Shown piece after piece: positions 15,392 to 35,246 of a stretch of DNA of 36,367 bases. Where the stretch lies: the sequence record DRR723986_9819; one strand, 5' to 3'. Each line of letters opens with the position of its first letter. Within the stretch, counting starts at the first letter, position 1. The notes under the pieces are model-generated. The model was not told the DNA's origin. It searched no databases and worked only from the letters and a program-made list of their open reading frames with translations. Both the position numbers and the translations under genes were made by a program.

Positions 15392-15444
15392 TCTATGGCT
15401 TGTTGACTATTGGTCACTGTAAAGATGCCGGCGGCCAAATGTTG

Positions 15445-16791: not shown

Positions 16792-16881
16792 TGTATGGGT
16801 ACCTTAGTCGCAGCGATGTTTCGTAAAGAAACGTGGTTTATGGTCGGAAACAAGCATTGTCATTTTTTGATACGCTGCAAG

Positions 16882-18138
16882 CTATTCGTTAGAGGCTGTG
16901 GGTTCGGATGCTGGGGTTTCGACGTCTTCCGGCTGGCTCAAATATATCTCATCATCGAGCGACAGACCACTTTCAATCACCACGTGTGTGCCATTCATCA
17001 GCCCGAGGGTGACGGCTTGTCGTTTTGGGCCGTCAGCGGTCTCCTTATACACAAAGACCAGTGAGTCCTGGGCGTGAATGGTCTCAAGCGGTACAAACAA
17101 GGCCTCATCCAGGCGCGATACCAGAATTTCGTTGCTGGTAGTCATAGAAGGGCGCAGGGTTGTATCCACGTCTTCGACTTCGATAAGGACTTCGAAGACT
17201 TTGGAGTCGGAGTTGCGTTGTTTCTCACCGACGTTGGCGACTTCGCGCACGGTGCCTTTCAGGACTTTTTCGGGGAGGGCGTAGAGTTTGATGGTGACGT
17301 CCTGGCCCTGCTGGACGTTGCGGATGTCGATTTCGTTAACAAAAGTTAGGGACTCCATATTACTCAGGTCGGGCAGCTCGGCGACGACGGGGTTCCATGC
17401 GGAGACGACGGAGCCAACGGCTTTTTTGCCGCCGCGACTTTCACGCGAGTAGATGACCATGCCATCTGAAGGTGCCAGAACGGTGAATTCCTGCAGCGTT
17501 TCTACGTAGCTATCGTGTGTGCGTTGATGTGAGCGCAGTTCAGCGCCGACTTCGCGCATTTTAGCGACGGCCTGCTGGACTTGGACTTCGTAGTTGTTTT
17601 CGGCCTGCTTGAGTGCGCGTTCGGAGCGTTCATAGTCGATCTGCGCCTGGCGAACGACGGACGGTGCCTCGTAGACTGACTGCTCATTTCGGATATTCGC
17701 TTCTTCGAGTGCAAAGCGTAAATTCACGAGATTATCGCGTGCTTGTGACAAGCTAAGAGCCGTATCGAGGCGTGCCTGTTCGTATTGAGACTCGGCTTTT
17801 TGAATGTTGATCAAAAGGTCTTTGATTTTACCTGACAAATCCGATTTATCCAGCTGCGCCACAAAATCGCCCTTTTTAACAAGCGTTCCTTCGGGCACCA
17901 TATCAGAGATATTTATCTGATAGATGCCGGTGGACTGGACGTTGCGCGGTCCGCGGATTTTGATGGAGTTTTTGGCGCGGAGCTCACCGGTGGTAGTAAC
18001 GGCGACTTCAAACGGACCTGACTCAGGCTTAACCAGAATTTGGGTCTGATTTTGGGCGGGCTCTGCAAGCGCCAGCCAGGCTGCCGCGACGAGTCCGATT
18101 CCGATTAGGGAATATATGATGTTGCGAAGAATCTTCAT
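16882..18138 (-). CDS. Efflux periplasmic adaptor (HlyD/MacA family membrane fusion protein)
   Basis: N-terminal TM; VPEGTLVKKGDFVAQLD, coiled coil, APSDGMVIY, VNEIDI..VQQGQ.V.I, LRPSMT. Confidence 0.92.
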   Translation of the reverse strand: MKILRNIIYSLIGIGLVAAAWLALAEPAQNQTQILVKPESGPFEVAVTTTGELRAKNSIKIRGPRNVQSTGIYQINISDMVPEGTLVKKGDFVAQLDKSDLSGKIKDLLINIQKAESQYEQARLDTALSLSQARDNLVNLRFALEEANIRNEQSVYEAPSVVRQAQIDYERSERALKQAENNYEVQVQQAVAKMREVGAELRSHQRTHDSYVETLQEFTVLAPSDGMVIYSRESRGGKKAVGSVVSAWNPVVAELPDLSNMESLTFVNEIDIRNVQQGQDVTIKLYALPEKVLKGTVREVANVGEKQRNSDSKVFEVLIEVEDVDTTLRPSMTTSNEILVSRLDEALFVPLETIHAQDSLVFVYKETADGPKRQAVTLGLMNGTHVVIESGLSLDDEIYLSQPEDVETPASEPTASNE

Positions 18139-18358
18139 GATCGCTTATATCGTTTGCTGTAATGAAAGTTTCGGCAAATTATACCATTATCTCAAGTGGA
18201 AAACTACTGGCATAAGTGTTATGTTCAGCTCAAATATAGTCGCTACAGACAAATGAGGCTATTTGAATGAGCTAAGCGAGCAAAAAATCTCCGTAAAATT
18301 TTTTAGAATCGGCGGAGAAATATGACTTATGTTTTTGAGCACGCATGGGCGCTGATTT

Positions 18359-18442
18359 TAAGGGTTTTTCTTATGCTAATCTCAGAAAAACCCTTAGAAC
18401 AAATTAGGGCAAACACTTAGGGTAAAATAAGGGTTATGCTTA
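18359..18442. promoter_or_regulatory. Second array of four 15-bp operator boxes, 23-bp period
   Basis: TAAGGGTTTTTCTTA (18359), TCAGAAAAACCCTTA (18382), TAGGGCAAACACTTA (18405), TAAGGGTTATGCTTA (18428); all fit TMRG-N7-CYKA. Confidence 0.82.
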
Positions 18443-18473
18443 TTGCTTCACGCGCTGTAAAGAACTAGTTTTG
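18443..18473 (+). promoter_or_regulatory. Promoter TTGCTT-N17-TAGTTT(TG) facing the PKS cassette
   Basis: TTG starts immediately after the last box; TAGTTTTG (TAnnTTTG) at 18466-18473. Confidence 0.72.
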
Positions 18474-19276
18474 CATGCGACTTACGGAACGGTTTAAGAA
18501 CGCGATAGTGGAAGTCATTATCGACGGGAAAGAAACCAACAACTAAAGCAAGATCGTTCCACATAACTTTTGACATTTAGAGAAAGTTTGCTTGTTTTCC
18601 TCGTTGAGACATCACTGCCGATCAAAACGAGAAAAACGCTCTGGGGAGAGTTGCCACTGCCAATGCGCTACCTCTCCAGTTCGAACACCAGCCCTTCGTT
18701 CACATACTTTCTTGAATTTGATTTTTTGCGTACACTGAAGAGAGCCGGAAATAAATCGGAATCCACCAGGTGGGGAAGTTGCACTCCAGCAGTGACTTTA
18801 CCACGGACCGAACAAAGCAGCACACTCATGTAAGTTTACCTTGATGTGAATTTGCGACTGCTATTTCTTCTGGTTAATTCTCGTGTTATACCCTGGTTGA
18901 TCATTATCATGTGCCATTGTGTTTAATTAAACACAATAGCCATACACACGATCCCGGATTACTTGCCTGCGCACTTCGACGGAAGCAGCGTGCGGAGGCA
19001 GGGTGGAAGGGGTGCGTGCCGAACTAAGGCGGAAAGGGCTGCGTCACAAAGCCAAGGAACTACTGTTCCTGGCCGACGATCACACTATATATTACTGTTT
19101 AACTTTTGGTGAGATTACAGTGATCACGTTAGAGTGTGAGCCGCATTAAGTCGTTGTAATGCGCTAGACATTGACGATAGACTGTAACAGATATATCTCT
19201 AAACCCATGCGTATACAAGGCATACGGGCCATTGCCGCGTGCGCTCACTTTTGACCCCGTATCGACAAAGGGAGTT

Positions 19277-21151
19277 ATGAAACAAGCTAAATCTTCTGTA
19301 CCAATAGTGGCGATGATCGTCCTTCTGCTGACGGGATCCTGGATTCTGCGTCCCGTTGAAGCAGAGCTACCTGACCTTGGGATTACATTTACGGAAGTTG
19401 CTGAAGAGGCTAACTGTTTAAATCAACATACTAAAGTTGAGTTGGCTTCGCGCTTTGAAAACATTATGCCCTGGCTCTCCTCAGTTGGAGCAGCCGTGGC
19501 AACTGGAGATTTTGACGGCGATGGATTTGTGGATTACTACGCCACAAACTGCGGCCGTGACTCACATAACCGTTTATACCGCAACCGTGGCAATGGAACG
19601 TTTGAAGATGTTGCAACTGCCTGGGGCGTAGCCGACTACAATGGCGTCGGCGCTTCTATGGATGCCGTTTTTCTGGATTTTGACAATGACGGTGACGAGG
19701 ACTTGTATCTGGTCAAATGGGCCGCCACAAATGTTCTGTTTGAGAATGTTGGCGATCGCTTTGTTGACCGTACAACCTCCGCCGGCGTTGGATTCTGGGG
19801 CTACGCTAATTCCGTGGTAACACTGGATTACGACCGTGACGGCCTGCTGGACATTCTGGTTGGAAATTATTTTGCTGAAGAAGTTCAGGATGAAAATACC
19901 GGACAGCTTGTCCGCAGTGATCTTTGGGATCCCGTATCGTCAAAAGTCATGCACGCCACATTTACGCACGCCACGAATGGTGGCCGCAATGTACTCTACA
20001 AAAACAACGGCAACGGAACCTTCCGTGACGTGACGATGGAGACGGGCATTGGGCACACCGGCTGGACGCTGGATATCGGCGTTGGCGATCTTAACAACGA
20101 TGGCTGGACGGATTTGTACGTATCGAATGACTTTGGTGCTGACGAAATCTACTTTAACACCGGTGCTACATCCGAGACGACAACATTCACGATTCATATC
20201 GATCCGGACGGACATCCGGGTGCCGGTAATGACTGGTGGAAAGGCATGAACTGTGATATCGGCGATGTTAACAATGATGGCCGTCAAGACGTGTACGTCA
20301 CAAACATCCTGGCACATCGCTATAAAACCGATGAGGGTAACATGCTGTGGTTAAACACAGCACAGGATGATATGGAAGGCGGAGTTAAATTCAGCAATAT
20401 TGGCAAAGAAGTAGATGTACACGATGGTGGCTGGGGTTGGGGCGGTCGCTTCTGCGATATGAACAACGACGGCCTGATGGACATCTTTGCACTTAACGGT
20501 TTCGCCACTGGTAAAGACCGTGACAACACTTATTGGTTTGCGTTGCAGGAAATGGTAACACAAACCAAAAACAACGCTTCTGATACAGAAGTATGGCCCG
20601 ATATGGGTGATCGTGATTTGTCTGGACATGAACCAAGTCGCTTGTTCATTCAACGTCCTACCAGCGAAAGCCAACCCGAGTTTATTGAGTATGCAGAGCT
20701 GGCGGGAATTACCGACCTGTACAACGGTCGTGGAATCGGTCTTGCAGACTATGACAATGATGGAGACCTGGACATGTATATCGCCAACCAGGGTGCGCCA
20801 AGTTGTTTGTACCGCAATGAAACCGGCAACACATCCGGCTCCTGGCTGGGACTCAAGCTGGTCGGACGTCCTGACGCACCAAAGCAGATTGATGGTCGCA
20901 TGTACGCTACCACCATGAATGCTGCAGGCGCACGCGTAGAGGTTTGGGCCGGTGGTCAGTACCATGTTAACGAACAGAACGAAGTCAATGGTTTTGCCGG
21001 TCAGGGAGACCGCCGCCTGCACTTTGGTCTGGGACAGGTTAACGAAATCGAACGGATCGTAATCTCGTGGCCAAGTGGGCGCACTACCACGATGGAAGGT
21101 GGCGATGTATTAGCCATTAATTCCTACCACGAGATTGTAGAGACGATCTGA
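19277..21151 (+). CDS. unbV: Enediyne cassette protein E4/UnbV (CRTAC1 family: FG-GAP/VCBS repeats + ASPIC/UnbV domain)
   Basis: Repeated DFDGDG/DFDNDGD/DYDRDG/DLNNDG/DVNNDG motifs; GWGWGGRFCDMNNDG; DLSGHE; C-terminal GFAGQGDRRLHFGLG..ISWPSG; N-terminal signal/anchor; SD GGGAG before ATG 19277. Confidence 0.88.
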   Translation: MKQAKSSVPIVAMIVLLLTGSWILRPVEAELPDLGITFTEVAEEANCLNQHTKVELASRFENIMPWLSSVGAAVATGDFDGDGFVDYYATNCGRDSHNRLYRNRGNGTFEDVATAWGVADYNGVGASMDAVFLDFDNDGDEDLYLVKWAATNVLFENVGDRFVDRTTSAGVGFWGYANSVVTLDYDRDGLLDILVGNYFAEEVQDENTGQLVRSDLWDPVSSKVMHATFTHATNGGRNVLYKNNGNGTFRDVTMETGIGHTGWTLDIGVGDLNNDGWTDLYVSNDFGADEIYFNTGATSETTTFTIHIDPDGHPGAGNDWWKGMNCDIGDVNNDGRQDVYVTNILAHRYKTDEGNMLWLNTAQDDMEGGVKFSNIGKEVDVHDGGWGWGGRFCDMNNDGLMDIFALNGFATGKDRDNTYWFALQEMVTQTKNNASDTEVWPDMGDRDLSGHEPSRLFIQRPTSESQPEFIEYAELAGITDLYNGRGIGLADYDNDGDLDMYIANQGAPSCLYRNETGNTSGSWLGLKLVGRPDAPKQIDGRMYATTMNAAGARVEVWAGGQYHVNEQNEVNGFAGQGDRRLHFGLGQVNEIERIVISWPSGRTTTMEGGDVLAINSYHEIVETI

Positions 21152-21281
21152 CAACCACACTATGACATATAGATGCCTGCCGTGCAGTGTGTTGCGCGAA
21201 AAAGAAACAAGCACACGGCGGCAGGCGATTTTATCTCACAAGCTTCGCATTTCAACAACGCTATTGAACGGAGATACTACC

Positions 21282-22295
21282 GTGAAATTCAAAATTATCG
21301 GCGTCGTCGCAACTATCGTCGTAGTTGTCCTTGCCATCTTTGCCTACCAACGTGCCGGCATTCTGGACCTTCCCGAAGTACCACAGGACTTAACAGCCGA
21401 CATGGTTGGTCTTGGAGGAATTGATACGCTGCGTTTTTCGCAGAACAAACTTGATTCTGGATCTTACTTCGGCGGTGTCAATGATAAAGGCACGGCAGTT
21501 ATGGCTATGGGCGCAGAACAGTTCCGCAAGGGAACATATGAGCGCGGACTGGAAGTGATGCGCATGGGCTTTAACTTTGACCCGAATAACCTGGCCCTGG
21601 GTAATGCCTTCCGTCTGTGTGTACTGGAAGCTCAGCGTGACTATTTGCGCAAGGCGGCCAAGGCGCGTCAACAGAAAGTGCGTCTGCCAATTTGGTTAAA
21701 CAATGAACCACGCCGGACCTTTGACAGCCGCTATAGAATTTACCGCTCGCGTGAGCTGAAATTCCAAAACGCGATGGCACTTGTAGACAAGATGCTTTTA
21801 TATCCCGCGCTAGAAATCAAGGCGCCTGCCAGCGTTGAAGCCGTAGAGTTATTGACGGAGATACTCGAAGAAAATAATGGAGAGAACAAATACTACGTTC
21901 CGGCGCTGTTTGCCCGTGGGCTGAACTATTTGTACCGGCCGGCAAATCTGGAATGGCCGGAAACGATTAAATCCTCCCCTACAGCTGCCAGTGATGATTT
22001 GGCGATGTGTGTGGCAATTGGTCAGGTCGTAGGTGTGGGTTCTGATGAACTTAAAGCACGCCTCTCGATGACGCTGGGTGACGCACATGTTAAGGAAGGT
22101 AACATCTCAAAAGGACGCTCATGGTGGCAAATCGCATACAACCTTAACAAAAGTGATAAGGCGTTTGCAGCTGAGATTAACGAGCGTACATCCTGGAAAG
22201 ATGATGAAGCAGGTGACAAGCTTGAGCGCCTGCTCGAACAACAAATGAATAATATTGCAAAACCGCTTACCGATATGAGGTTCATGTGGAAATGA
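21282..22295 (+). CDS. Membrane-anchored helical/TPR-like hypothetical protein inside the cassette
   Basis: GTG start after GGAGA; N-terminal TM; TPR-like segments (..GLEVMRMGFNFDPNN.., LGDAHVKEGNISKGRSWWQIA); ATGA overlap with the next gene. Confidence 0.7.
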   Translation: MKFKIIGVVATIVVVVLAIFAYQRAGILDLPEVPQDLTADMVGLGGIDTLRFSQNKLDSGSYFGGVNDKGTAVMAMGAEQFRKGTYERGLEVMRMGFNFDPNNLALGNAFRLCVLEAQRDYLRKAAKARQQKVRLPIWLNNEPRRTFDSRYRIYRSRELKFQNAMALVDKMLLYPALEIKAPASVEAVELLTEILEENNGENKYYVPALFARGLNYLYRPANLEWPETIKSSPTAASDDLAMCVAIGQVVGVGSDELKARLSMTLGDAHVKEGNISKGRSWWQIAYNLNKSDKAFAAEINERTSWKDDEAGDKLERLLEQQMNNIAKPLTDMRFMWK

Positions 22296-23203
22296 ACGCC
22301 ACAGCCCCAGCGGCTCAAAAAACATCACCGGCGCCAATGAAATTTGTGTTGCCAAAATTGCGAGACCCACGCGTGACGCTGCTGTGTATCCTTGGAACAT
22401 ACACGGCACTGGGGCAGTTCGTCTTCTACTTCAACGTAAGTATGGAGCAGCTGCTGTTGACAATTGGTGTGACAGGAGGTTTGGACTTCCTGATTACCCT
22501 GTTTAAGCGTCGCCGCATAGAAATACCACTCAGCGGAATCATTACAGGCCTTAGCCTGGGCCTGCTGCTTGAGTCATACAGCAGCGTCATCTTTGTTGTT
22601 GCTGCCGTATGGTCAATTGCTTCAAAGTACTTGATCAAGTACAAAGGCGTGCAGGTGTTTAACCCGTCAAACTTCGGTATCGTAGCAGCGTTGTTGCTGA
22701 TGCATGGAACTGTAACGGTCGCTCCCGGCTCACAATGGGGTAGTGAAATTTTATACTCCGTCATCGTGCTTTCTTTTGGCCTGATGATGAGCTGGCGTGT
22801 TAACAGGCTGCCGCTTGTATTGGGTTGGGCAGGTGGATTTGTATTGATGGGACTGGTGCGCATGTCGCTCGGGCAAGGTGGATTAATATTCGTGCTTGGG
22901 CCAATGACGGGCGCTGAGTTTATGCTCTTTACGATTTCGATGGTACCTGATCCCAAGGCTTCACCTAAACACGTTGTGACGCAGGTAGTTTGGGGACTTT
23001 CGATTGCGCTGATTGATGGAGTGATGCGCTTCAGTGAGATGCGTTTCTCAATGTTCTACGCTCTGTTTATCCTTTGTGCAATTCGCCCATGGTTTGAAAG
23101 TGCCGTTGAACGGATATTTAACCTGGCCGAAGACCAGCGTGCTTGGACAGGTGGTAACGCCCGCCAGCCTGCCGCAGTTTTGAAGGATAAGGCCGCCGCC
23201 TGA
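22292..23203 (+). CDS. unbU: Enediyne cassette protein E5/UnbU-like membrane protein (RnfD/NqrB-like)
   Basis: Multi-TM; ITGLSLGLLL, SIASKYLIK...QVFNPSNFGI, FTISMVPDPKASP; located in the PKSE cassette. Confidence 0.8.
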   Translation: MNATAPAAQKTSPAPMKFVLPKLRDPRVTLLCILGTYTALGQFVFYFNVSMEQLLLTIGVTGGLDFLITLFKRRRIEIPLSGIITGLSLGLLLESYSSVIFVVAAVWSIASKYLIKYKGVQVFNPSNFGIVAALLLMHGTVTVAPGSQWGSEILYSVIVLSFGLMMSWRVNRLPLVLGWAGGFVLMGLVRMSLGQGGLIFVLGPMTGAEFMLFTISMVPDPKASPKHVVTQVVWGLSIALIDGVMRFSEMRFSMFYALFILCAIRPWFESAVERIFNLAEDQRAWTGGNARQPAAVLKDKAAA

Positions 23204-23289
23204 TTTCCACCTGAAATCATGCAGACAAAAATGTACACCAAGAATGTGCGGCAGCTCAGCAACGGCTGCCGCCGAAAGGAAACACTACT

Positions 23290-24252
23290 ATGATCGGTTC
23301 AGTGATGGCCTGGTGGATCGGACGCCTGATAGATAATATGCGTTTTCCCAACCAGGGTCCGGGAGGAGAAGAAACAACACGGCAGGTAATGCAGTCCTTC
23401 GGTGCTGGTGCTAAACTGGGACTGCGCAACAAGTCTTTGGAACAAGTGCGTGCCTATTCAGATAACCTGCCGTGGAGCCACCGTGCGTTTTACCACGAAG
23501 GTCATGCAATGGGTGTTGCTGCGCGATGTGCTATGCGTCTTAAGTCCGGCACTCCGGAAGCAATGTTTGACTATGAAGAATACCGCCTGATGCGCTATGT
23601 CGGTTACGGTTTTTGGAACGGAGCAACCACAAAGTATCCCGCGCCAAAAATGGATGAGACAAGTGCACTCTGGGGCGATGAGGAGACCTGGCAGAAGTAC
23701 CGTCTGCTGATGCCCAACGGCTTTGGTTTCTCTACAGTGATGTTTCGCGGTGTTTTTGATGACTCTGCAATTGCAAGCATCGAACAACTCGGTGACGAGG
23801 AATCGCGCGAAGCAGCATACCATGGCGTCGGTCGTGTTTTGTGGTTTCTCTACATGCACAACTATGATGAGTTAAACAGGATTCTGAATCAACAAGTCTG
23901 GCGCAGTGAGCCGCTTGCAATCGGTTTGGGTTTGGCAATGGGGTTTACCCAGGTCGCTATGCCGGATGCCGTTATGCGCGCCGTTGACCAGATTGACGAA
24001 CGCCACCGTGAAAACGTTCTGCGCGGAGTTGGAATCGCCCTGGAAACACATGCCAGCAATAGCCCGGAGGGGCGCATTCAGGTTGAGCGATCAGTATACG
24101 GTGAGTTGCGTCTCCGTTATGACATCGCCCTGGAAGCGACTGCTTCAGGAACGGGAGAAAACTGGTACCGCCTCTATCACGAAAACACGCGCCGGAAATC
24201 TCGCGCGGAATTTGCGCAGGCCATGTCAAATGGCGCGGCCGTACGACGTTAA
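23290..24252 (+). CDS. unbL: Enediyne cassette protein E3/UnbL (DUF1702 family)
   Basis: AFYHEGHAMG, YVGYGF, NGFGF, GVGRVLWF, GLGLAMGF, GVGIA motifs; 320 aa; directly upstream of pksE. Confidence 0.8.
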   Translation: MIGSVMAWWIGRLIDNMRFPNQGPGGEETTRQVMQSFGAGAKLGLRNKSLEQVRAYSDNLPWSHRAFYHEGHAMGVAARCAMRLKSGTPEAMFDYEEYRLMRYVGYGFWNGATTKYPAPKMDETSALWGDEETWQKYRLLMPNGFGFSTVMFRGVFDDSAIASIEQLGDEESREAAYHGVGRVLWFLYMHNYDELNRILNQQVWRSEPLAIGLGLAMGFTQVAMPDAVMRAVDQIDERHRENVLRGVGIALETHASNSPEGRIQVERSVYGELRLRYDIALEATASGTGENWYRLYHENTRRKSRAEFAQAMSNGAAVRR

Positions 24253-24294
24253 ACATCAAACCTCACTCGGTCGGATCTCTCAAGGAACACAGAA

Positions 24295-27200
24295 ATGACA
24301 ACATACAACGATCACGACATTGCAATTGTCGGAATGGGCTGCCGCTATCCAGATGCGGAGTCACCGGAAGATTTACTTAACAATACCCTCGCGCATCGTC
24401 GTGCCTTTCGTCGGTTTCCCGATGAGCGCCTGCGCCTGGAAGACTATCATTCAATGGATCGCAGCTTAGCCGATAAAACCTATGCTACGGAAGCCGCCGT
24501 CCTGGAAGGATTTGAATTTGACCGGATTCGCTATCGTGTGGCCGGCAAGACATTCCGTTCGGCCGACATGGCACACTGGCTGGCATTGGATGTAGCTACG
24601 CGTGCGCTCTACGATGCGGGTTTCCCGGACGCGGAAGGCTTGCCACGCAAACGCACCGGCGTAATCATCGGCAACACCTTAACCGGTGAATTTTCGCGTG
24701 CCAATATCACACGACTGCGCTGGCCGTATGTACGCCGCGTTATGGAGTCCGGTCTTCGTGAAGAAGGCTGGTCTGGCGAAGAGATTGGAATGTTTCTGGC
24801 GCGCATGGAAAAACGCTTTAAGAAACCCTTTCCCGAAATTGCCGAAGAATCACTGGCAGGTGGCTTGTCAAATACCATTGCCGGGCGCATCTGTAATTAC
24901 TACGATTTGCATGGCGGCGGATATACTGTAGACGGTGCCTGTGCTTCCTCACTTCTGGCAGTCGTAACCGCCTGTAATTCACTTGCTGCCGGCGACATAG
25001 ATGTAGCCATGGCCGGTGGTGTTGACCTTAGTCTTGATCCATTTGAAATTGTTGGATTCGCTAAAACAGGCGCGCTTGCAGCAAATGACATGCGCGTGTT
25101 TGAAGAGCGCTCAGCTGGATTTTGGCCCGGTGAAGGTTGCGGTTTTGTAGTGCTGATGCGCTACGCAGATGCCGTCAAGGGCGGTCATCGTATTTACTCT
25201 GCCATTCGCGGCTGGGGCATTTCTTCTGACGGCTCTGGTGGTATCACTCGACCCGAAGTTGAAGGCCAACTGCAAGCTGTTAATGCCGCCTATGATAAAG
25301 CCGGATACACTGCCGATAGCGTAACGTTCTTTGAAGGGCATGGCACCGGAACTGCGCTTGGTGATGATACCGAACTTAAAACTTTAACGCGTGCGGTTCG
25401 TGAAGCGGGCGCGGCTTATGGTCGCAGCTACATTGCTTCTACCAAAGCAAATATTGGACATACTAAAGCTGCTGCAGGCGTGGCCGGTTTAATTAAGGCA
25501 ACAATGGCCTTAAACAAACAAGTGATTCCGCCACTGACAAACTTGGAGCGCTCTCACCCGGTAATCGCCGATGCCGATGGTATGTTGCAGACTGTTAACA
25601 AAGGAATCTCCTGGCCGGAAGACCGGCCGCTGCGCGCAGGTGTCAGCGCAATGGGGTTTGGTGGAATTAACACACACTTAACGCTCGAGAATCCAGCGGA
25701 AGATCGCCGTAGTGGATTTACGGATTCCGAACAATCTGTTTTGCGTTCTGCGCAAGACTGTGAGCTATTTGTATTCGGTGGAGCTGATCGGGACGAACTG
25801 CGCACAAAAGTGAATCAAGTTGCCGACTATGCCGAAAAACTTTCGCGAGCACAACTTGCCGATCTGGCGCACACCCTGTTTAACGAACTGGACGCTGATG
25901 CGCCCTTCCGTGCGGCCGTAGTGGCAAACCTGCCATCCGAATTGGACACGCGCCTGCACAAAGTTCTTGAGCTGATGGACTCGGGCGTAACAGAGCAGAT
26001 TGATGTTGGTGATGGAATTATGCTGGGCAGCTCGGATCAGGTTCCACGTATTGGCTTCCTGTTTCCTGGTCAGGGGGCACCGGCGAATCTGGATGGTGGA
26101 ATTTTCCGCCGTCGCTTTGATTTCATCGATGAGCTGTATGACCGTGCGAATTTGCCAACAGGTGTAGATGGTGTTGCCACCGACGTAGCGCAGCCGGCGA
26201 TTGTAACCGCCTCCCTGGCTGGAATGCAGCTACTGCAGCAGCTGGGAATTGAGGCCGACTGTGGTGTTGGGCATTCGCTGGGAGAAATCAGCGCACTTGG
26301 CTGGGCCGGCGCGGCAGACGAAGAAACTTTAATGCGGGTTGCACGTGCACGCGGTCGGGCTATGGCCGATCTTGGCAGCCCTACAGGTGCCATGGCCAGC
26401 CTTGGTGCTGGTCGCCAGCGTGTTGAGCGCTTGTTAAACGGACACGACACTGTAATCGCAGGCTTAAACTCCTCACGTCAAACCGTTATTTCCGGTGAAC
26501 GTGAGCTGGTGCATGAAATAGTTAAACGCGCCAAAGCCGCCGGAATCAGTGCCGTACCGCTGCAGGTATCACATGCTTTTCACTCACCGTTGGTAGCTGC
26601 CGCCGTTCCCGTACTTCAGGATTACATTAACACTGAGTCATTCAAGAATCTGGAACGGACGGTGTATTCAACAGTTAGTGGTAGCGAGCTGGAAAAAGAT
26701 GCCGACATTGTTGATCTGCTTGGCCGCCAGGTGACGCATGCCGTGCGATTCGTTGAAGCGGCAGGTAAAGCGATGAACGATGTCGATTTGGCAATCGAAG
26801 TCGGTCCAGGGAAAATCTTGAGTGGCCTCGTTAGCGACTACGACATTCCAACGATTTCACTTAACGTTGGCGGCTCTTCGTTGCGCGGTTTGCTGCACGC
26901 CGCCGGCGCTGCGTTTGTATTGGGCGCCAAGCCAAACTTAAACACGCTGTTTGACGATCGTTTTGTACGGCCTTTTGTTCTTGACTGGCAGCCGAGCTTC
27001 CTTGTTAACAATTGTGAGTTGGCGCCACTATCACATGGTCTTCCGGCACATTTTCAATTGGAAGAAGAGTCCGCCGATACAACGGATCTCAACGGTGTTA
27101 CTGATGGACCGGCCAATGGCGCCGCGACTGATGCTTCGCCGCTAGATACAATTCGGCGGCTGGTGGCTGAACGGGCTGAATTACCTTCCGAAGCGATTAA

Positions 27201-30126
27201 TGATGGCGACCGCATGTTAACAGACTTGCACCTGAACTCAATTGCCGTGAGTCAACTGGTAATTGAGTCCGCCAGAGAACTGCAGGTCGATCCGCCCGCC
27301 AACCCAACGAATTATGCCGATGCTACCGTGCAAGAAATTGCCGATGCTTTGAGTGAACTGGGGCAGGGCGGTGAGACACAACACAAGGTTGTTCCCAAAA
27401 TCCCCAATGGCGTAGACACCTGGGTACAGTCCTTTGCGGTTACGCAATTTGAAGAAACAGCGCCGCCTGCGCCACAAAACGCAGAGGCGGCCGAATGGAA
27501 ACTAAGCACCCCTGCCGGGTACACGTTGGAGGAAGCGTTACGCACGCGGCTCGATCGCGCTTCGGGTACTGGCGGCAGCATCGTCTGTTTGCCGACGAAT
27601 CCGGATGAAGTTGCTGTGGAACGCCTTCTGAGCGCCATGCGTGAATTCCTGCATTCAAGGCAAACCGCGACTTTCGTCTTGGTGCAACACGGTGGGGGAG
27701 CTGCTTCTATGATTCGGACGCTTCAACTTGAAGCGCCTGAAGTTAATACTGTAGTTGTAGATGTTCCCCTGGATGCGCCTGCGGCGGCGGATTGGATTGT
27801 CCATGAAGCCGTAACAGCTGACGGACACCGCGAAGTTAACTATGATAGTTCAGGGCGCCGCACAGTACCGCGTTTAACTTTGTACCAGGGTGCTGAACCA
27901 GTTGACGAAAAACCACTGAGTTCTGAGGACGTTTTGTTGGTGACCGGTGGCGGCAAAGGTATTACGGCCGAATGTGCCCTGATCATCGCCCAGGAGTCCG
28001 GCGCTAAACTCGCTTTGCTGGGGCGCTCGCGTCCGGATAGCGATACAGAACTCAAAGAGAATCTGGAACGAATGCAGGCTGCGGGTTGCAATCTGCGATA
28101 CTACTCAACAGACATCACGGATTCTGACAAGCTGGTTGCCACATTGGATAATATCCAGTCTGAGCTGGGTGCCATAACAGCCATTCTGCATGGTGCCGGT
28201 GCCAACAAGCCCAAACTTATCCAGGCGCTGGAAATGGAAGACTTCCGCCGCACTCTTGGACCAAAAGTATACGGGCTGCGCTACATTCTTAAACATCTTG
28301 ATGCTCAAAACATCAAAATGTTAATCTCCTTCTCATCCATCATTGCCCGTTCCGGCATGCACGGTGAAGCTGATTACGCGCTGGCCAACGAGTGGTTAAC
28401 ACGGATGACTGAACAGTATGCCACTGATAACCCACACGTTCGAGCCCTCTCAATCGAATGGTCGGTCTGGTCCGGCGTCGGAATGGGGGAACGCCTCGGT
28501 GCTGTTGAAGCCCTGATGCAAAAAGGCATTACGCCAATTTCCCCGGATGCAGGTATTGCCATAATGCGCGATTTAATCTGCGCACGCGGCAGTGATGTTG
28601 CACTGGTTGTCTCTGGACGATTTGGCGATTCGCCGACGCTCGTTTTTGACCGTCCCGAATTACCTTTCCGCCGCTTCCTTGAAAACACGCGTTTCCATGT
28701 GCCCGGCGTAGAGCTGATTGTAGACAGTGAGCTTTCGCTGGAAAATGATCCCTACTTAAACGAACACGTCTTCCGCGGTGAGCGGCTGTTGCCTGCCGTT
28801 GTAGGAATGGAAGCCATGGCGCAGACAGCCATGGCGCTGCGTGCCACCGAACAGCAACCATGGTTTGAAAATGCTCAGTTTCATCGCCCGGTTGTTGTTT
28901 CCGAACGCAATCCTCAGCAAATACGAGTGGCTGCGATCGCAAGAAGCGCTGACGTAGTTGACGTTGTACTGCGTTCTGCCGAAAGTAATTTTCAGGTTGA
29001 TGTGTTCAGCGTTCGTTGCCGTTTTGATGCACGACCCGAACTCTCACCAGTCGATGAAAACTTTGTTGAAAGTGCACCTGCAGAAATGACACATGTGCAG
29101 ATTGATCCGGCCACAGATTTATATGGTGGGATTTTCTTTCACACCGGGCGCTTCCAGCGTGTACGCTCATACCGCTCACTGCATGCCACGCGTGCCGTTG
29201 CGGAAATTGACACGACTCCAGCCGGCAAGTGGTTTGGGCGCTATCTGCCGCAAACACTGGTGCTGGGTGATGCAGCCGTGCGCGATGCCGTAATCCATTC
29301 GATACTTGCATGTCTGCCGCACGCAACCTTGTTGCCAATTGGTGTTGACGCATTGCTCCCGGCTATGCAGCCGCATGAGGGACCCGTGTTTATCCATGCG
29401 AACGAACGTTTGCGCGAAGACAAACTGTTTATCTACGACGTGCGCGTTACCGATGAACAGGGCCGTATTCTGGAGCGCTGGGATGGCTTGCGCCTGCAAA
29501 TGATCGCGGAGAATCCTCCAAGTGATGCATGGGTTGAAGCTCTGCTGGGGCCATACATGGAACGCCGGGTTGGCGAACTTGTAGAAGGTGCCAACTGCAG
29601 GGCTGTTGTCCAGCGCGACACCAGTGATGATCGCCACACAAATAGCAATGCGGCAATTCAACGCGCCCTTGGATCCGAAGTGTCCATCATGCGACGCCCA
29701 GATGGGAAACCGGAGTTGCTCAATGATGCTCGTGAAGTCTCAGCGGCACACTCTTCCGGTTTAACATTTGCTGTGGCAGGCGAAGGTCCGCTTGGATGTG
29801 ACCTGGAGCCGGTTGTTGCACGACCAGCACAATTGTGGCGGGACCTGCTCGGTGCCGAACGTTATCAGCTTGCAGAGTTACTGGCACGTGAACTGAATGA
29901 GGATGCCGACCTTTCCGCCACACGCGTGTGGGAAGCCGGTGAGTGTTTAACAAAGGCGGGAGCTCTTCCTAATGCTCCGCTGGTGTATCACTCTTCAACA
30001 GTTGACGGATGGGTTCTCTTTGCATCCGGTTCTCTTGTAGCCGCCACCTATGTTGGGCCGCTGCGAAATTCAAAAGGTTTAACAGCATTGGCTATTCTGG
30101 TCAGGAGGATGAATGAAAGCGTTTGA
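24295..30126 (+). CDS. pksE: Enediyne-type iterative type I polyketide synthase (KS-AT-ACP-KR-DH-PPTase)
   Basis: 1943 aa; KS DGACASSL/EGHGTGT/NIGHTKAAAG with GEFSRAN..RLRWPYVRR; AT GHSLGE and HAFH; internal ACP DLHLNSI; KR TGGGKGIT..YALAN; DH HVFRGERLLP; C-terminal PPTase GCDLEPV..RVWEAGECLTKAG. Confidence 0.96.
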   Translation: MTTYNDHDIAIVGMGCRYPDAESPEDLLNNTLAHRRAFRRFPDERLRLEDYHSMDRSLADKTYATEAAVLEGFEFDRIRYRVAGKTFRSADMAHWLALDVATRALYDAGFPDAEGLPRKRTGVIIGNTLTGEFSRANITRLRWPYVRRVMESGLREEGWSGEEIGMFLARMEKRFKKPFPEIAEESLAGGLSNTIAGRICNYYDLHGGGYTVDGACASSLLAVVTACNSLAAGDIDVAMAGGVDLSLDPFEIVGFAKTGALAANDMRVFEERSAGFWPGEGCGFVVLMRYADAVKGGHRIYSAIRGWGISSDGSGGITRPEVEGQLQAVNAAYDKAGYTADSVTFFEGHGTGTALGDDTELKTLTRAVREAGAAYGRSYIASTKANIGHTKAAAGVAGLIKATMALNKQVIPPLTNLERSHPVIADADGMLQTVNKGISWPEDRPLRAGVSAMGFGGINTHLTLENPAEDRRSGFTDSEQSVLRSAQDCELFVFGGADRDELRTKVNQVADYAEKLSRAQLADLAHTLFNELDADAPFRAAVVANLPSELDTRLHKVLELMDSGVTEQIDVGDGIMLGSSDQVPRIGFLFPGQGAPANLDGGIFRRRFDFIDELYDRANLPTGVDGVATDVAQPAIVTASLAGMQLLQQLGIEADCGVGHSLGEISALGWAGAADEETLMRVARARGRAMADLGSPTGAMASLGAGRQRVERLLNGHDTVIAGLNSSRQTVISGERELVHEIVKRAKAAGISAVPLQVSHAFHSPLVAAAVPVLQDYINTESFKNLERTVYSTVSGSELEKDADIVDLLGRQVTHAVRFVEAAGKAMNDVDLAIEVGPGKILSGLVSDYDIPTISLNVGGSSLRGLLHAAGAAFVLGAKPNLNTLFDDRFVRPFVLDWQPSFLVNNCELAPLSHGLPAHFQLEEESADTTDLNGVTDGPANGAATDASPLDTIRRLVAERAELPSEAINDGDRMLTDLHLNSIAVSQLVIESARELQVDPPANPTNYADATVQEIADALSELGQGGETQHKVVPKIPNGVDTWVQSFAVTQFEETAPPAPQNAEAAEWKLSTPAGYTLEEALRTRLDRASGTGGSIVCLPTNPDEVAVERLLSAMREFLHSRQTATFVLVQHGGGAASMIRTLQLEAPEVNTVVVDVPLDAPAAADWIVHEAVTADGHREVNYDSSGRRTVPRLTLYQGAEPVDEKPLSSEDVLLVTGGGKGITAECALIIAQESGAKLALLGRSRPDSDTELKENLERMQAAGCNLRYYSTDITDSDKLVATLDNIQSELGAITAILHGAGANKPKLIQALEMEDFRRTLGPKVYGLRYILKHLDAQNIKMLISFSSIIARSGMHGEADYALANEWLTRMTEQYATDNPHVRALSIEWSVWSGVGMGERLGAVEALMQKGITPISPDAGIAIMRDLICARGSDVALVVSGRFGDSPTLVFDRPELPFRRFLENTRFHVPGVELIVDSELSLENDPYLNEHVFRGERLLPAVVGMEAMAQTAMALRATEQQPWFENAQFHRPVVVSERNPQQIRVAAIARSADVVDVVLRSAESNFQVDVFSVRCRFDARPELSPVDENFVESAPAEMTHVQIDPATDLYGGIFFHTGRFQRVRSYRSLHATRAVAEIDTTPAGKWFGRYLPQTLVLGDAAVRDAVIHSILACLPHATLLPIGVDALLPAMQPHEGPVFIHANERLREDKLFIYDVRVTDEQGRILERWDGLRLQMIAENPPSDAWVEALLGPYMERRVGELVEGANCRAVVQRDTSDDRHTNSNAAIQRALGSEVSIMRRPDGKPELLNDAREVSAAHSSGLTFAVAGEGPLGCDLEPVVARPAQLWRDLLGAERYQLAELLARELNEDADLSATRVWEAGECLTKAGALPNAPLVYHSSTVDGWVLFASGSLVAATYVGPLRNSKGLTALAILVRRMNESV

Positions 30127-30553
30127 ACATAAACATGTAGTTGGTTTTGAAGAAACCAACGTAGTCGGCAATGTATACTTTGCCAACTATCTGGTCTGGC
30201 AGGGCAAAGCCCGCGAAATGTTTTTACGTGCCCATTGTCCTTCGGTGCTGGCATTAATTGCTGACGGCTTGTCACTTGTGACGCTGCGCACCAATTGTGA
30301 GTACTTCGCTGAGCTGGAAGCTTTTGATGAAGTGCTGATCCGAATGACACTTGAAGATATTCGCCAGAACCGAGTGACCATGAAGTTCGATTATTTCAAA
30401 GTTACACCGCGCGGCAACGAACTTGCTGCCAGCGGTGAGCAATCCATCGCCTGCATGCAGCGTGACGGCACGGAAATGGTTCCGACACCGGTACCAACCG
30501 AAATGCGTGACGCTCTGCGGACCTATCAAAACTCAGCCCTGGGTGTAGTTTGA
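30113..30553 (+). CDS. Enediyne core thioesterase E10/TEBC (hotdog fold; SgcE10/CalE7/DynE7 family)
   Basis: VGFEETNVVGNVYFANYLVWQGKAREMFL, CEYFAEL, GEQSIACM; overlaps the pksE stop by 14 bp. Confidence 0.93.
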   Translation: MKAFEHKHVVGFEETNVVGNVYFANYLVWQGKAREMFLRAHCPSVLALIADGLSLVTLRTNCEYFAELEAFDEVLIRMTLEDIRQNRVTMKFDYFKVTPRGNELAASGEQSIACMQRDGTEMVPTPVPTEMRDALRTYQNSALGVV

Positions 30554-30618
30554 TGTATTGTTTTTGCAATCTCAGAAATCAAGAAGTTAACACAAGCCGC
30601 AAATGCACTTTTGCACTG

Positions 30619-32286
30619 ATGGCAGTGCAGAAAATGTTTATAGCGGTGCTAACATGCCTGTTCTTTTCGTCAGGCGCTTTCGCCGGAGATGCATGGTCAG
30701 AACGTGAAGTTCGCACAAATGTACTGGCGCTGGCACTTAACGGATTCGGCAGCTCAACTGCCGTAGCGTATGGCTACTTTGAAGTCGACTATATGAACGA
30801 GAATCCGGAGCAGCCGGTGGATCTCATGATGAGTGACTTTGATTTAGGTGCGCGCTTCCCGCTGTTTAACGGCGTTCATATTTATCTCAACGATCGAATT
30901 GAGTCCTATGGGCACATTCGTCCGGCCTGGGCGTATTACGATAGCGTTTCAGTTGGAGATGGCTCATTTTTTCCAGCTGTTAATGACAATGTCTTTTTCC
31001 TGGAATTACGCATTGAGCAAATGAACTCAACGTGTAAAAGCCGTGGCCCGGTCACTTTGATTGCCGATATCAACGAGTGGCCTCCGCCCCCCGGAACTAT
31101 CTACGATGTTGAAGAAAAAGTAAACTTCAAATCTGTAGACTCTACAGGTCAGTATCAGGCCCTGGGTTTAACTGTTCACCTGGATACCAATCTGCGGGCA
31201 TGGTTCTACGAAAAAGGGGCCGTGGACGTGACATTACGTCAGGCCAAACGCGATGGACCCAAGATGCGGGTTGAAGGCACGATCCGCTCCAATACCGACA
31301 GCCTGTTCGCACATGGATGGACCTTCTATTCAGGCGGCAAGCTGATCGAGATGGAGACACCGCATGCCGATACATTGGCAGCACAGTATGGTGAATTTGC
31401 CGGACACGATACACTTTGGGCCGTCGGTGAAGAACATACAAAATACGTTGACTTTACGATGCGCCGCCCTGGCGTTGAACGCATATACCTCTTGGTATCT
31501 GGCCGTGAAGTCGCATTCGTTGGCGATAAAAAGTTCATTGAAATACGGCAGCCCGATCGCGGCCTGGAAGTGGACGATATTGACAATTGGCGTGTTGAGC
31601 GTGGGAGCAAGAGCGAAATTCAAATTCACGGAAAAGATTTCCGCGAGCCCCTGGAGCTTGAGTTTAGTGGCGAAGGAATTTCAGTTGCTTCAATTAAACT
31701 GGAGTCGCCCAACAAAATTCACGCTACGCTGGATATAGCCGCAGCGGCCTATGCCACGGACCGCGATCTTACGGTGTTAAGTGACGGCCGCAGTTTTACC
31801 GTGGTGGATGGACTGCGAGTCAAAAGGCTTAAACATGTAGTTACCAGCGTTGACATTGATACCGTTATTACTGGTCAGGAATTTGCCATGACCATTTCTG
31901 GTGAAAGATTCCCGGAACGTGTTTACGTGAACCTGGGAGACAGTGTTGTGTTAAAAGACATGGTGCGTAAATCTGAGACAGAAATTTTGGTCAAAGGTGT
32001 GCTGCCTAACTACTACGAATCAGTTGCGATGAATGTCGTCGTAGCTGGTGCCTTACACTCGGCTGTTTTACCAAACGCAGTGTACATAGAAGACGGAAAC
32101 CCCAGCATGCTGGCGAGTCTGTTCCCAATGCTTTGGTATCTGGTCGGTGGCCTTTTAGTACTCTGCAGTGGCGTGTTCTACTTTTTGCGAACAAAGAACC
32201 GCATGCGTTCTACTGTGGCTGAGCAAAGTGGAAATAACCATGCTACTGTAACAGAGACTCAACCGCACAGACAAGTGCCGGTATGA
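30619..32286 (+). CDS. Secreted, C-terminally membrane-anchored hypothetical protein with an N-terminal beta-rich domain and Ig/IPT-like domains
   Basis: Signal ..LFFSSGAFA; FFPA..WPPPPG domain; IQIHGKDF..FSGEGISV and MTISGERF IPT/TIG-like segments; C-terminal TM followed by a basic tail; start uncertain (30550-30634). Confidence 0.7.
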   Translation: MAVQKMFIAVLTCLFFSSGAFAGDAWSEREVRTNVLALALNGFGSSTAVAYGYFEVDYMNENPEQPVDLMMSDFDLGARFPLFNGVHIYLNDRIESYGHIRPAWAYYDSVSVGDGSFFPAVNDNVFFLELRIEQMNSTCKSRGPVTLIADINEWPPPPGTIYDVEEKVNFKSVDSTGQYQALGLTVHLDTNLRAWFYEKGAVDVTLRQAKRDGPKMRVEGTIRSNTDSLFAHGWTFYSGGKLIEMETPHADTLAAQYGEFAGHDTLWAVGEEHTKYVDFTMRRPGVERIYLLVSGREVAFVGDKKFIEIRQPDRGLEVDDIDNWRVERGSKSEIQIHGKDFREPLELEFSGEGISVASIKLESPNKIHATLDIAAAAYATDRDLTVLSDGRSFTVVDGLRVKRLKHVVTSVDIDTVITGQEFAMTISGERFPERVYVNLGDSVVLKDMVRKSETEILVKGVLPNYYESVAMNVVVAGALHSAVLPNAVYIEDGNPSMLASLFPMLWYLVGGLLVLCSGVFYFLRTKNRMRSTVAEQSGNNHATVTETQPHRQVPV

Positions 32287-32356
32287 ACAAATTTCATAAT
32301 TGCGTGGCATGCCACAACAGCCTAATAACTCGTGGCATGTTTCTGAATGGGTTAAC

Positions 32357-33412
32357 ATGAAGACTCTACTTCAGGCTATAGTGAAACGTCCGATTCTCAG
32401 TGGTGCCCTTGCCGTATGGACGATGTGGCTCATACTGATGATTGATGGAAATCACTGGTCCGTATTTTCGGAAAAGTGGTATATGACGATCACCATGGTA
32501 TTTGGCTCATTTATTGCCGGTGCAACCAGTGAAGGTGGTGGAGCTGTAGCGTTCCCCGTCATGACACTGTTGTTTAAAATTGATCCGGCTGTAGCGCGTG
32601 ACTTTTCATTGATGATTCAGGCCGTTGGCATGATGGCCGCTGCATTCACAATTGTGTGTATGCGCGTTCCAATTATTGCACAGGCCGTCGTTTTTGCAGG
32701 GTTGGGAGGCGTGGTGGGAATAACGTTTGGGCTGGATGTTGTTTCCCCTCTCCTTCCGCCTGCTTTTACCAAAGTATTGTTTACAAGCGTATGGCTGAGT
32801 TTTGCCGTCGCTTTATTCTGGATAAATCGCAAACGCAGCCGTCAGGTGTATCAGCGTTTGCCAAAATTTGGACCGTCTCAAGCCGTGGTGCTGATTGCGG
32901 TTGGTTTGATTGGCGGAGTTATTAGCGGTGTTACCGGAAGTGGTCTGGACATCCTGACATTCTCCGTTCTTGTGCTCGGCTTAAAAATTGACGAGCGCGT
33001 TGCGACCCCCACGTCGGTAATTTTGATGGGGATGAACGCCCTGTTTGGTTTCATCTGGAAAGGTGGCCTTGGAGCAGGTATGCCATTGGATGCATGGAAC
33101 TATTGGTACGCCTGTGTTCCCGTAGTTGTGATCGGTGCGCCACTTGGTGCCTGGTTCATTTCCAAGCGTTCACGAACGCTAGTTGTTAACTTCTTGTACG
33201 TCTCAATTTTCGTGCAATACGTAGCAGCTTTACTGATATTACCGCAGACCGTAAACCTCTTATTGTTTAGCGCTGCCATCATTTTAGGCGGAGTTTTATC
33301 CTTCCGTTTGATGACAATGTATGGCGATCGTTTCAATTTGAGAATTTCTAAAGAATTTAAACAAAAAGCGGCGGAAAAAACTTCGCCAATTCAAAATATT
33401 GTTGTAGATTGA
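32357..33412 (+). CDS. TauE/SafE (sulfite exporter) family membrane transporter
   Basis: TMVFGSFIAGATSEGGGAVAFPVMTL, ARDFSLMIQAVGM, GSGLDI, VATPTSVILM, PVVVIGAPLGA. Confidence 0.88.
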   Translation: MKTLLQAIVKRPILSGALAVWTMWLILMIDGNHWSVFSEKWYMTITMVFGSFIAGATSEGGGAVAFPVMTLLFKIDPAVARDFSLMIQAVGMMAAAFTIVCMRVPIIAQAVVFAGLGGVVGITFGLDVVSPLLPPAFTKVLFTSVWLSFAVALFWINRKRSRQVYQRLPKFGPSQAVVLIAVGLIGGVISGVTGSGLDILTFSVLVLGLKIDERVATPTSVILMGMNALFGFIWKGGLGAGMPLDAWNYWYACVPVVVIGAPLGAWFISKRSRTLVVNFLYVSIFVQYVAALLILPQTVNLLLFSAAIILGGVLSFRLMTMYGDRFNLRISKEFKQKAAEKTSPIQNIVVD

Positions 33413-33616
33413 GGTTATGGAGTTTACGAAATAGTCTCTACGATAACAGTGGCCACACGACCATTCCTACCAGCCCCGGAAGTGTTCCATAAAGCGCCCA
33501 ACTGTTATACCTACATTCAATCCAATAGCTTGCGATCTCTACGAACCAGCCCTCACCGAGATCCACGCACGATAACCAATACTGTCATTTGAAATACAGC
33601 AAATGTTGAGATGCGA

Positions 33617-33660
33617 AAAACGCCGTGCGCCGGCAGCGCTCGTCGGTTGTACGGTGTTTT
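33617..33660 (+). terminator. Long hairpin with T-tail, possible terminator of the cassette operon
   Basis: AAAACGCCGTGC..GCCGGC..GTCGGT..GTACGGTGTTTT; the mismatches are G-U pairs on the + strand. Confidence 0.5.
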
Positions 33661-34085
33661 ATGACGTGACCGCTCTGTAAAAACAGGACTGTCCTGTCTC
33701 GCCTCAACAAGATTGCATAGAGACCACAAGTGTCCGTGATTTTCTTCGGCGAACCACTACTGCCATTGCCAGGAAGAAAGCGGTCAAGCCTTGTCGATTC
33801 TCAACCCATGATCTGTTCATGCGCTGGAGTGATCCTCGCGATCATTTCAATGCCATAAATATGGCATTAACAATTAGCCTATTTCTACTTAGCTACTGAA
33901 AACCATTCAGCAGTTGAACGGAAGTGGGGTGAGTATACAGTGTATTTGATGATTTTCTAGGTTGATTGACACCGGTAGAGCGAACTGTGTTAAGTCGCAC
34001 ACTTTGATTCCAGGCCCGATGATACGTTTACATCGGTCAGCATGCAAAAGCCCGCACAAATAACCCAGGGCAAAAAACAAATACA

Positions 34086-34182
34086 ACGATAGGTCGATCC
34101 TGCGCGGGGGCGACTGATACATGGCCTGCCACGGCATGCCGCCTGATTGCATTCATTACTACAGCTTCTCGCTCATCTCAAC
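34086..34182 (+). promoter_or_regulatory. Conserved structured leader element, copy 1
   Basis: ACGATRGGTCGATCCTGCGCGGGGGCGAC (34086-34114) and CTCGCTCATCTCAAC (34168-34182) are shared with 35301-35372. Confidence 0.65.
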
Positions 34183-34244
34183 CTTAACAGGTTTTTTCCA
34201 ACTTATTTTCATCCAACTCATTCTCATTCCACAGGAATACTCTC

Positions 34245-35231: not shown

Positions 35232-35246
35232 TAAATATAAGACTGC

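Follow-up and report, generated by a model that had tools for sequence, protein, structure and literature searches.

Few natural products damage DNA as potently as the enediynes. In the characterised actinomycete systems, an enediyne polyketide synthase (PKSE) and a thioesterase (E10) form a linear conjugated polyene, and the proteins E3, E4 and E5 are needed to get past this polyene. To our knowledge, thousands of PKSE cassettes in other phyla are without a known product. The 'minimal PKSE cassette' has been described previously (PMC9992847; PMC10760148). Singh et al. (2023, PMC10308959) link enediyne ketosynthase (KS) domains to Bacteroidetes, Cyanobacteria, Proteobacteria, Firmicutes, Chloroflexi and Spirochaetes, and give enediyne compounds as reported only from Actinobacteria and marine ascidian extracts. 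Here we describe a cassette of this kind, with an additional gene X, at positions 19277-30553 of a stretch of 36,367 nucleotides from sequence record DRR723986_9819; the whole stretch is referred to as the window.

The presence of a genuine PKSE cassette in a host of the Fibrobacteres-Chlorobi-Bacteroidetes (FCB) group can be regarded as almost certain. The best explanation overall, to which we assign a probability of roughly 0.6, is an intact minimal enediyne-type operon in a Kapabacteria/Ignavibacteria-like FCB bacterium, with processing located in the cell envelope and a likely linear product.

Gene content of the cassette

The region 19277-30553 is filled by six open reading frames (ORFs) on the plus strand, all of which lack internal stop codons. 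The bounds of the cassette are exact: an ATG (Met16 of ORF 19232-21151) begins at 19277, and the stop codon of ORF 30113-30553 ends at 30553. The genes are arranged in the order E4-X-E5-E3-PKSE-E10. An earlier note on this DNA had claimed five intact canonical genes in this order, and the ORFs, Pfam, matches in structure databases and sequence motifs confirm it. The usual order E3-E4-E5-PKSE-E10, which is typical but not defining, was not found in the window.

The spacings between the six genes are +10, -10, +86, +42 and -14 nt. Beyond E10, a gene designated o578 follows at -4 nt and a TauE permease gene at +13 nt. Since this tight spacing continues through both genes, the unit resembles a single operon of eight genes. 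In the best explanation, the cassette is an intact chromosomal minimal enediyne-type polyketide synthase (PKS) operon, which probably runs on through o578 and the permease gene. Its genes are the following, with primes marking the versions of E3, E4 and E5 that occur together with X:

19277..21151, plus strand: E4' (UnbV-like), secreted FG-GAP beta-propeller with C-terminal UnbV_ASPIC domain; the ORF opens with TTG at 19232, the likely start is ATG 19277
21162..22295, plus strand: X, TPR-like protein, predicted to be all-helical and anchored by a single membrane pass; possibly starts at GTG 21282 (Val41) instead
22286..23203, plus strand: E5' (UnbU-like), polytopic membrane protein with predicted RnfD/NqrB-type fold
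23290..24252, plus strand: E3' (UnbL-like), divergent soluble DUF1702 protein
24295..30126, plus strand: PKSE, iterative type I enediyne-type PKS with the domains KS-AT-ACP-KR-DH-PPTase
30113..30553, plus strand: E10, SgcE10/DynE7/CalE7-family thioesterase of the hot-dog type; its first 14 nt are shared with the end of the PKSE gene
30550..32286, plus strand: o578, secreted protein with predicted C-terminal transmembrane anchor; its first 4 nt lie within the end of the E10 gene
32300..33412, plus strand: TauE/SafE-family permease, 13 nt past o578; the operon probably ends here

The KS, acyltransferase (AT), ketoreductase (KR) and dehydratase (DH) domains of the PKSE (1943 aa) were recognised by Pfam. 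The AT region matches DynE8 (E 1.5e-61) and the acyl carrier protein (ACP) domain that of CalE8 (2l9f, E 1.1e-18). All motifs are present, namely KS Cys216/His349/His389, AT GHSLGE, ACP DLHLNS, KR GGGKGIT with Ser/Tyr/Asn, DH HxxxGxxxxP and the C-terminal phosphopantetheinyl transferase (PPTase). The catalytic motifs of all six domains are invariant among 20 aligned PKSEs. The PPTase was assigned from conserved C-terminal motifs and from the alignment to PKSEs, which extends up to residue 1935; comparison of this region with PDB sequences gave no meaningful match. The PKSE is 47% identical to that of Streptomyces globisporus over residues 9-1935. Its best relative is 83% identical and the second 56%, and many of its homologues are annotated as 'enediyne polyketide synthase' in JGI.

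The thioesterase E10 (146 aa) has no transmembrane segment and is presumably cytoplasmic. Comparison with the PDB yielded SgcE10 (4i4j, 2.8e-43), DynE7 (2xfl, 2.5e-42) and CalE7 (2w3x, 6.5e-36) as matches, with YbgC-type thioesterases at about 1e-6. A homologue of E10 was found in 73 of the 80 PKSE loci used for comparison (loci are labelled L below).

Accessory proteins and possible product

E4' features a single N-terminal hydrophobic segment (residues 6-24) and matches the Pfam families FG-GAP_3 (5.4e-41, five stretches), FG-GAP (4.2e-17) and UnbV_ASPIC (2.7e-15). Its identity to E4' of other loci with X (X-type loci) is 52-60% in nearly full-length matches, compared to 25-32% for canonical E4. 

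No Pfam or NCBIfam match was obtained for X. The protein has one N-terminal transmembrane segment (residues 43-61), and its start is perhaps GTG 21282, because relatives begin at the position of Val41. The AlphaFold2 model of X (pLDDT 83.4) consists entirely of helices, and the nearest PDB folds in a Foldseek search are TPR proteins, with weak matches (E 1e-3 or worse). The family comprises 113, 48 and 25 representatives among 1.84 billion at E values of up to 1e-3, 1e-10 and 1e-30, respectively, and its distant tail consists of TPR proteins. One distant relative, P0283 (1034 aa), is a natural fusion of E4-like FG-GAP/UnbV_ASPIC domains with TPR repeats. Such a Rosetta-stone fusion is a hint that X acts together with E4. 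The complex predicted for E4' (residues 30-624) and X (residues 68-377) had a score of 0.00, a value which says nothing on binding.

E5' contains several transmembrane-like segments, and homologues of the gene were found by tblastn directly upstream of the PKSE gene in 62 of the 80 loci, including S. globisporus. At E values of up to 0.1, the family PF03116 (NQR2_RnfD_RnfE) was matched by eight of nine E5' and seven of eight canonical E5 proteins, again including the S. globisporus copy, with best values of 7.8e-11 and 1.1e-10 in the two sets. For the model of E5' (pLDDT 84.6), RnfD and NqrB chains account for all of the 15 best PDB folds (E 5e-6 to 1.1e-3, TM-score 0.55-0.65), followed by urea and Rh/Amt channels as the next structural neighbours. 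In a profile search against the PDB, RnfD was matched at E 0.069 only. A flavinylation motif in E5 was considered and rejected, as this search left the segment in question unaligned to RnfD. E5/UnbU proteins appear in general to be distant members of the RnfD/NqrB family, with examples at 22286-23203 of the window, L036:8699-9727 and L020:9018-9992. A literature search joining enediyne with RnfD or NqrB gave no such paper among the matches listed.

E3' lacks a transmembrane segment and is presumably cytoplasmic. It matches DUF1702 with 4.3e-16 (59 bits, cut-off 25), and 24 of 30 matches in a protein-atlas search are clusters of DUF1702 or the 'Enediyne biosynthesis protein family'. Compared to one canonical E3, which itself scores 361 bits, the identity is just 25% (E 0.009). 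The subfamily is small, with 33 clusters at E values of up to 1e-5 among 5.8 billion proteins. Its named members originate from one Bacteroidota bacterium, one Ignavibacteria, two Ignavibacteriae and, as a partial protein, one Acidoferrum. By tblastn, an E3' homologue was detected in only 8 of the 80 loci, at 23-27% identity.

Of the genes following E10, o578 encodes a protein with hydrophobic segments at both termini and a weak match to the Ig-like Pfam family Qn_am_d_aIII (6.2e-4, under the cut-off). It is probably co-transcribed with E10, because its start overlaps the E10 stop codon. Neither the 80 PKSE loci nor the X-type loci contain a homologue. The permease matches Pfam TauE (1.4e-18) and has many transmembrane segments; no homologue lies beside the PKSE gene in the 80 loci. 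Upstream of the cassette, on the opposite strand, genes for a tripartite efflux system are found:

13913..18138, minus strand: tripartite efflux genes, with OEP at 13913-15391, MacB/FtsX permease at 15445-16791 and HlyD-type adaptor at 16882-18138
18139..19231, no strand: intergenic region of 1.1 kb with lower GC content (0.43), the presumed divergent promoter region between the efflux genes and E4'

Pfam matches of the efflux genes are OEP (4e-42), MacB_PCD (2e-33), FtsX (1.3e-20) and HlyD_D23 (1.7e-10). HlyD-MacB-OEP genes are not conserved beside the PKSE gene in the 80 loci, and the system is a candidate exporter by inference only. Transporters of the MMPL/RND type are located beside the PKSE gene in 14 of the 80 loci, all in records titled as non-actinomycete (L002, L003, L004, L013, L019, L020, L023, L024, L026, L028, L030, L033, L054 and L070), and also in L081 (5760-8054). 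Scans for sigma-70 promoters and terminators between 17900 and 34400 yielded 15 and 26 sites, compared to shuffle means of 16.8 and 19.4, and were rated uninformative. The window contains no Rfam families or tRNAs.

Further away, the minus strand of 547-8403 carries a housekeeping block with genes for an asparagine synthase, a DegT-type aminotransferase, a sugar nucleotidyltransferase, asd, a CNNM/CorC transporter and recO. Next come genes for a response regulator of the LuxR type (9345-9974) and for a DUF885 protein (10759-12570). At the other end, positions 33413-36367 are lower in GC content (0.46) and resemble the remainder of the window less closely in tetranucleotide composition (0.60-0.68); the ORFs 34245-35231 and 35432-36367 had no Pfam match.

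By analogy with the actinomycete enzymes, the PKSE would phosphopantetheinylate its own ACP and iteratively build an ACP-bound conjugated polyene. E10 would then release the polyene, which is a heptaene-type product in the systems studied. Later steps may be located at the inner membrane and in the periplasm. They would involve soluble E3', the membrane protein E5', X as a TPR scaffold anchored to the membrane and E4' as a secreted beta-propeller, and export could proceed through the neighbouring HlyD-MacB-OEP system. Reportedly, work by Gui and colleagues in 2024 found that the five-gene cassette alone yields polyynes, with iodoheptaene, diiodotetrayne and pentaynes among the products. No literature joining enediyne with iodoheptaene, pentayne or cryptic iodination was found.

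All ORFs of at least 90 aa within 10 kb on either side of the PKSE genes of three actinomycete loci (L036, L044 and L071) were compared to the window. Just E3, E4, E5, PKSE and E10 were matched, the remaining matches being wrong-strand frames inside the PKSE gene. Further conserved genes for core processing, tailoring and resistance of the nine- and ten-membered actinomycete clusters were not found in the window in this comparison. Since only the five cassette genes were matched, a linear product at cassette level is to be expected. As our best guess from gene content, the product is a linear polyene-derived polyyne or an intermediate at cassette level; a decorated enediyne with a nine- or ten-membered ring is less likely. 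The chances that it contains an alkyne at all appear about even.

The alternative that survives best is that the operon makes a linear conjugated polyene only, for instance a heptaene-type hydrocarbon or lipid for the membrane or as a pigment, with E3', E4', E5' and X handling or transporting it and no triple bonds being formed. We regard this as possible, though rather doubtful. It would be in line with the restriction of matches to the five cassette genes, with the channel-like RnfD/NqrB fold of E5 and its next neighbours, the urea and Rh/Amt channels, with a non-catalytic role of the predicted TPR-like scaffold X, and with the lipid-type MMPL transporters beside 14 of the 80 PKSE genes in non-actinomycete records. 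In addition, PKSE clusters from outside the actinomycetes have yielded no reported compound (PMC10308959). However, homologues of E3, E4 and E5 accompany the PKSE in different phyla just as they do in enediyne producers, and the five-gene cassette reportedly suffices for polyynes, which also speaks against a polyene-only product.

A more far-reaching proposal is that E4'-X-E5'-E3' represents a distinct enediyne-type branch centred on FCB bacteria and Planctomycetes, in which an envelope machine of E5', X and E4' oxidises the PKSE polyene and thereby gives rise to a new class of diderm polyynes or enediynes. We consider this unlikely. A corollary, should this hold, would be that the E5 proteins of every enediyne pathway are RnfD/NqrB-type redox or channel proteins. 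Within the reading of an intact minimal operon with a likely linear product, the fold of E5 and the predicted envelope location of E4 and X already provide testable ideas for the obscure steps that follow polyene formation.

Host and distribution of the cassette

The flanking asd gene was used to place the host. The best relative of Asd is 75% identical and the next ones 63-64%; named relatives belong to Kapabacteria, Chlorobi, Ignavibacteria, Calditrichaeota, Kryptonia and Bacteroidetes. Compared to individual genomes, the identity is 58-61% to five members of the class of a Kapaibacteriota metagenome-assembled genome (MAG), hereafter the Kapaibacteriota class, 53% to G148, a Bacteroidota MAG of this class, and 49% to a Planctomycetaceae MAG.

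Trees were calculated with FastTree or the quick mode of IQ-TREE from the first 925-930 residues of the PKSEs (KS-AT), without a polyunsaturated fatty acid (PUFA) synthase outgroup. The tree with 81 rows includes 77 loci, of which 42 are labelled Actinomycetota and 35 originate from eleven other phyla; L006, L027 and L038 were left out as truncated loci. In this tree, the window and the PKSE P0001 fall within a clade of 40 rows (100, starred), which are nearly all non-actinomycete, apart from 41 rows of Actinomycetota including S. globisporus. In the same tree, the PKSE of L021, whose record is titled uncultured Bifidobacteriaceae, pairs with Pedosphaera of the Verrucomicrobiota (100, starred) far from the other Actinomycetota rows; the L021 contig is probably mis-binned. 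In an IQ-TREE tree with 52 rows, the window and P0001 are the sister of a clade (99, starred) of six PKSEs from genomes of the Kapaibacteriota class.

Asd relatives, the position of the PKSE and the named relatives of E3' thus all agree with the FCB, non-actinomycete host proposed in the earlier note, and a mapping of the flank to Actinomycetota, which that note had allowed for, was not borne out. Sequence relationships support a Kapabacteria/Ignavibacteria-like uncultivated FCB bacterium as host.

The novelty of such a host should not be overrated. At least 592 stretches of species-representative genomes, of at least 600 matched by pattern, were confirmed as PKSE relatives. PKSE matches at E values of up to 1e-100 were present in 9 of 201 sampled genomes of the Kapaibacteriota class, eight of them at full length, while the ninth (G002) is cut by the contig end at residue 1666. 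In the phylum of the Kapaibacteriota MAG, such matches occur in 6 of 401 genomes, with nearly the whole length covered in three. Together with the published KS domains from Bacteroidetes, these numbers do not bear out the exceptional rarity implied earlier. As PKSE genes are common beyond actinomycetes, a non-actinomycete host is not new.

A homologue of X was found in just two of the 80 genome loci, the Planctomycetaceae MAGs L024 and L033, where E4 is 53-55% identical to that of the window. A scan of metagenomes with an alignment of X yielded seven loci, in all of which E5' follows X, and E4' precedes X in six. X is located between E4' and E5' in L024, L033, L081-L085, L087 and L098, and with E5' only in L086. 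Two of these loci show the complete gene order of the window. In the metagenome contig L081, the identities are 60% for E4', 44% for X, 61% for E5', 47% for E3', 54% for PKSE and 55% for E10. In contig C92 of G148 (L098), they are 58, 43, 51, 49, 38 and 48%, respectively. In G148, the match to X (C92:18121-19143) contains one in-frame TGA and the match to Asd (C17:24882-25898) one TAA, which could be assembly errors, pseudogenes or matches overrunning the gene ends. The X ORF of L098 as used here translates cleanly. Directly downstream of the cassette in L098 (2-4537), a surface protein of 1512 aa carries a Por_Secre_tail domain, the sorting domain of the type IX secretion system (T9SS). T9SS sorting tails are a hallmark of Bacteroidota.

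In the tree with 52 rows, the PKSEs of X-type loci are not united in a single clade, yet no starred branch forbids it. The window combines a PKSE from the lineage of the Kapaibacteriota class with accessory genes common to Planctomycetaceae and other FCB bins. This combination hints at modular exchange between PKSE and accessory genes, a process suggested rather than shown by these sequences.

It is very improbable that the contig is chimeric or the cassette so recently transferred that it is foreign to the FCB organism encoding asd and recO. The tetranucleotide correlation between left flank and cassette is 0.913, at least equal to the within-flank control (0.89), while eleven other loci reach at most 0.80. 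On this signature a chimeric contig was rejected, and there was no sign of the junction at 18-19 kb considered in the earlier note, despite the lower GC content (0.43) of the intergenic region there. E4', X and E5' are indeed closer to those of the Planctomycetaceae MAGs (39-55%) than to those of the canonical cassettes of the Kapaibacteriota class (about 30%), which counts in favour of this alternative. The PKSE, however, groups with those of the Kapaibacteriota class, named relatives of E3' belong to Bacteroidota and Ignavibacteria, and the same cassette occurs in a Bacteroidota genome beside the T9SS-tailed protein.

The last alternative, a PUFA synthase or other iterative type I PKS, can practically be dismissed: NCBIfam PfaA (TIGR02813) does score 545 bits, with only residues 5-595 (the KS region) covered, but this is far under its cut-off of 1010.1, homology to PKSEs is full-length, ACP and AT match CalE8 and DynE8, and an SgcE10-type thioesterase and E3/E4/E5 are adjacent. 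In homology searches and in the KS-AT trees, which had no PUFA outgroup, the KS groups with PKSEs rather than with PUFA synthases or iterative PKSs of other kinds, contrary to the grouping by which the earlier note would have abandoned its assignment. Judged by these comparisons, the cassette is a genuine PKSE cassette.

Several observations weigh against the reading of an intact minimal operon with envelope-located processing and a likely linear product. In L083 and L086, X and E5' are surrounded by unrelated genes, such as those encoding an SNF2 helicase, a protein with Ser/Thr kinase and TPR parts, LpxD and a glycosyltransferase, and about 9 kb downstream are free of a PKSE gene; an E4' match is present in L083 alone. 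L085 has no PKSE gene within 2.7 kb downstream or 5 kb upstream. X and E5' genes are therefore not always adjacent to a PKSE gene, and those of L083 and L086 may act with a distant PKSE or without one. E3' is very divergent, so its functional equivalence with canonical E3 is an assumption. E5' of the window itself has no Pfam match and does not reach PF03116. As o578, the TauE permease and the efflux genes are not conserved at other PKSE loci, the roles given to them are a guess. The branch joining the window to the PKSEs of the Kapaibacteriota class has an SH-aLRT value of 94, below the tool's star.

Comparison with known cassettes

Like RnfD and NqrB, which are subunits of Rnf and Na+-NQR, E5' has the predicted fold of this family and relatives that match PF03116. 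Unlike in those complexes, other Rnf/Nqr subunits are not encoded nearby, and the sequence identity is just 12-17%.

With the actinomycete minimal cassettes, the window has the five gene families, the domain order of the PKSE and its catalytic motifs in common. The S. globisporus locus (L036), which we take to be the C-1027 sgc cluster, shows identities of 51% for E10, 27% for E4 and 31% for E5, in addition to the 47% of the PKSE given above, and SgcE3 matches E3' with an E value of 2e-6. The window differs from these cassettes by the extra gene X and by a highly divergent E3 gene placed just upstream of the PKSE gene. Its KS falls outside the Actinomycetota clade and its host is diderm.

Apart from P0001, the closest PKSE lineage (51-53%) is that of the canonical E4-E5-PKSE-E10 cassettes of the Kapaibacteriota class (L020 and L091-L095), which come from the same broad host group. 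In contrast to the window, X occurs in none of these genomes, and for E4 and E5 the identity to the window's proteins is only about 28-34%. The Planctomycetaceae loci L024 and L033 have E4'-X-E5' in common with the window. They differ from it by keeping a canonical E3 (356-361 bits) and by their E4'-X-E5' being divergent and accompanied by an MMPL transporter.

The locus adds little to the published presence of such cassettes in Bacteroidetes-type bacteria. What it defines is a compact operon of eight genes, belonging to a rare cassette type in which one further gene is conserved. Such an operon is a tractable target for heterologous expression. The X-type loci L098 and L081 resemble it, with the identical order E4'-X-E5'-E3'-PKSE-E10 and identities of 58-60% for E4', 43-44% for X, 51-61% for E5' and 47-49% for E3'. 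In contrast, the PKSEs of X-type loci (38-54%) are no closer to that of the window than other non-actinomycete PKSEs and are scattered in the tree, and o578 and the TauE permease are found in none of these loci. Taken together, the window is a member of a small, previously undescribed variant cassette type, E4'-X-E5'-E3', within a cassette family that is itself well known.

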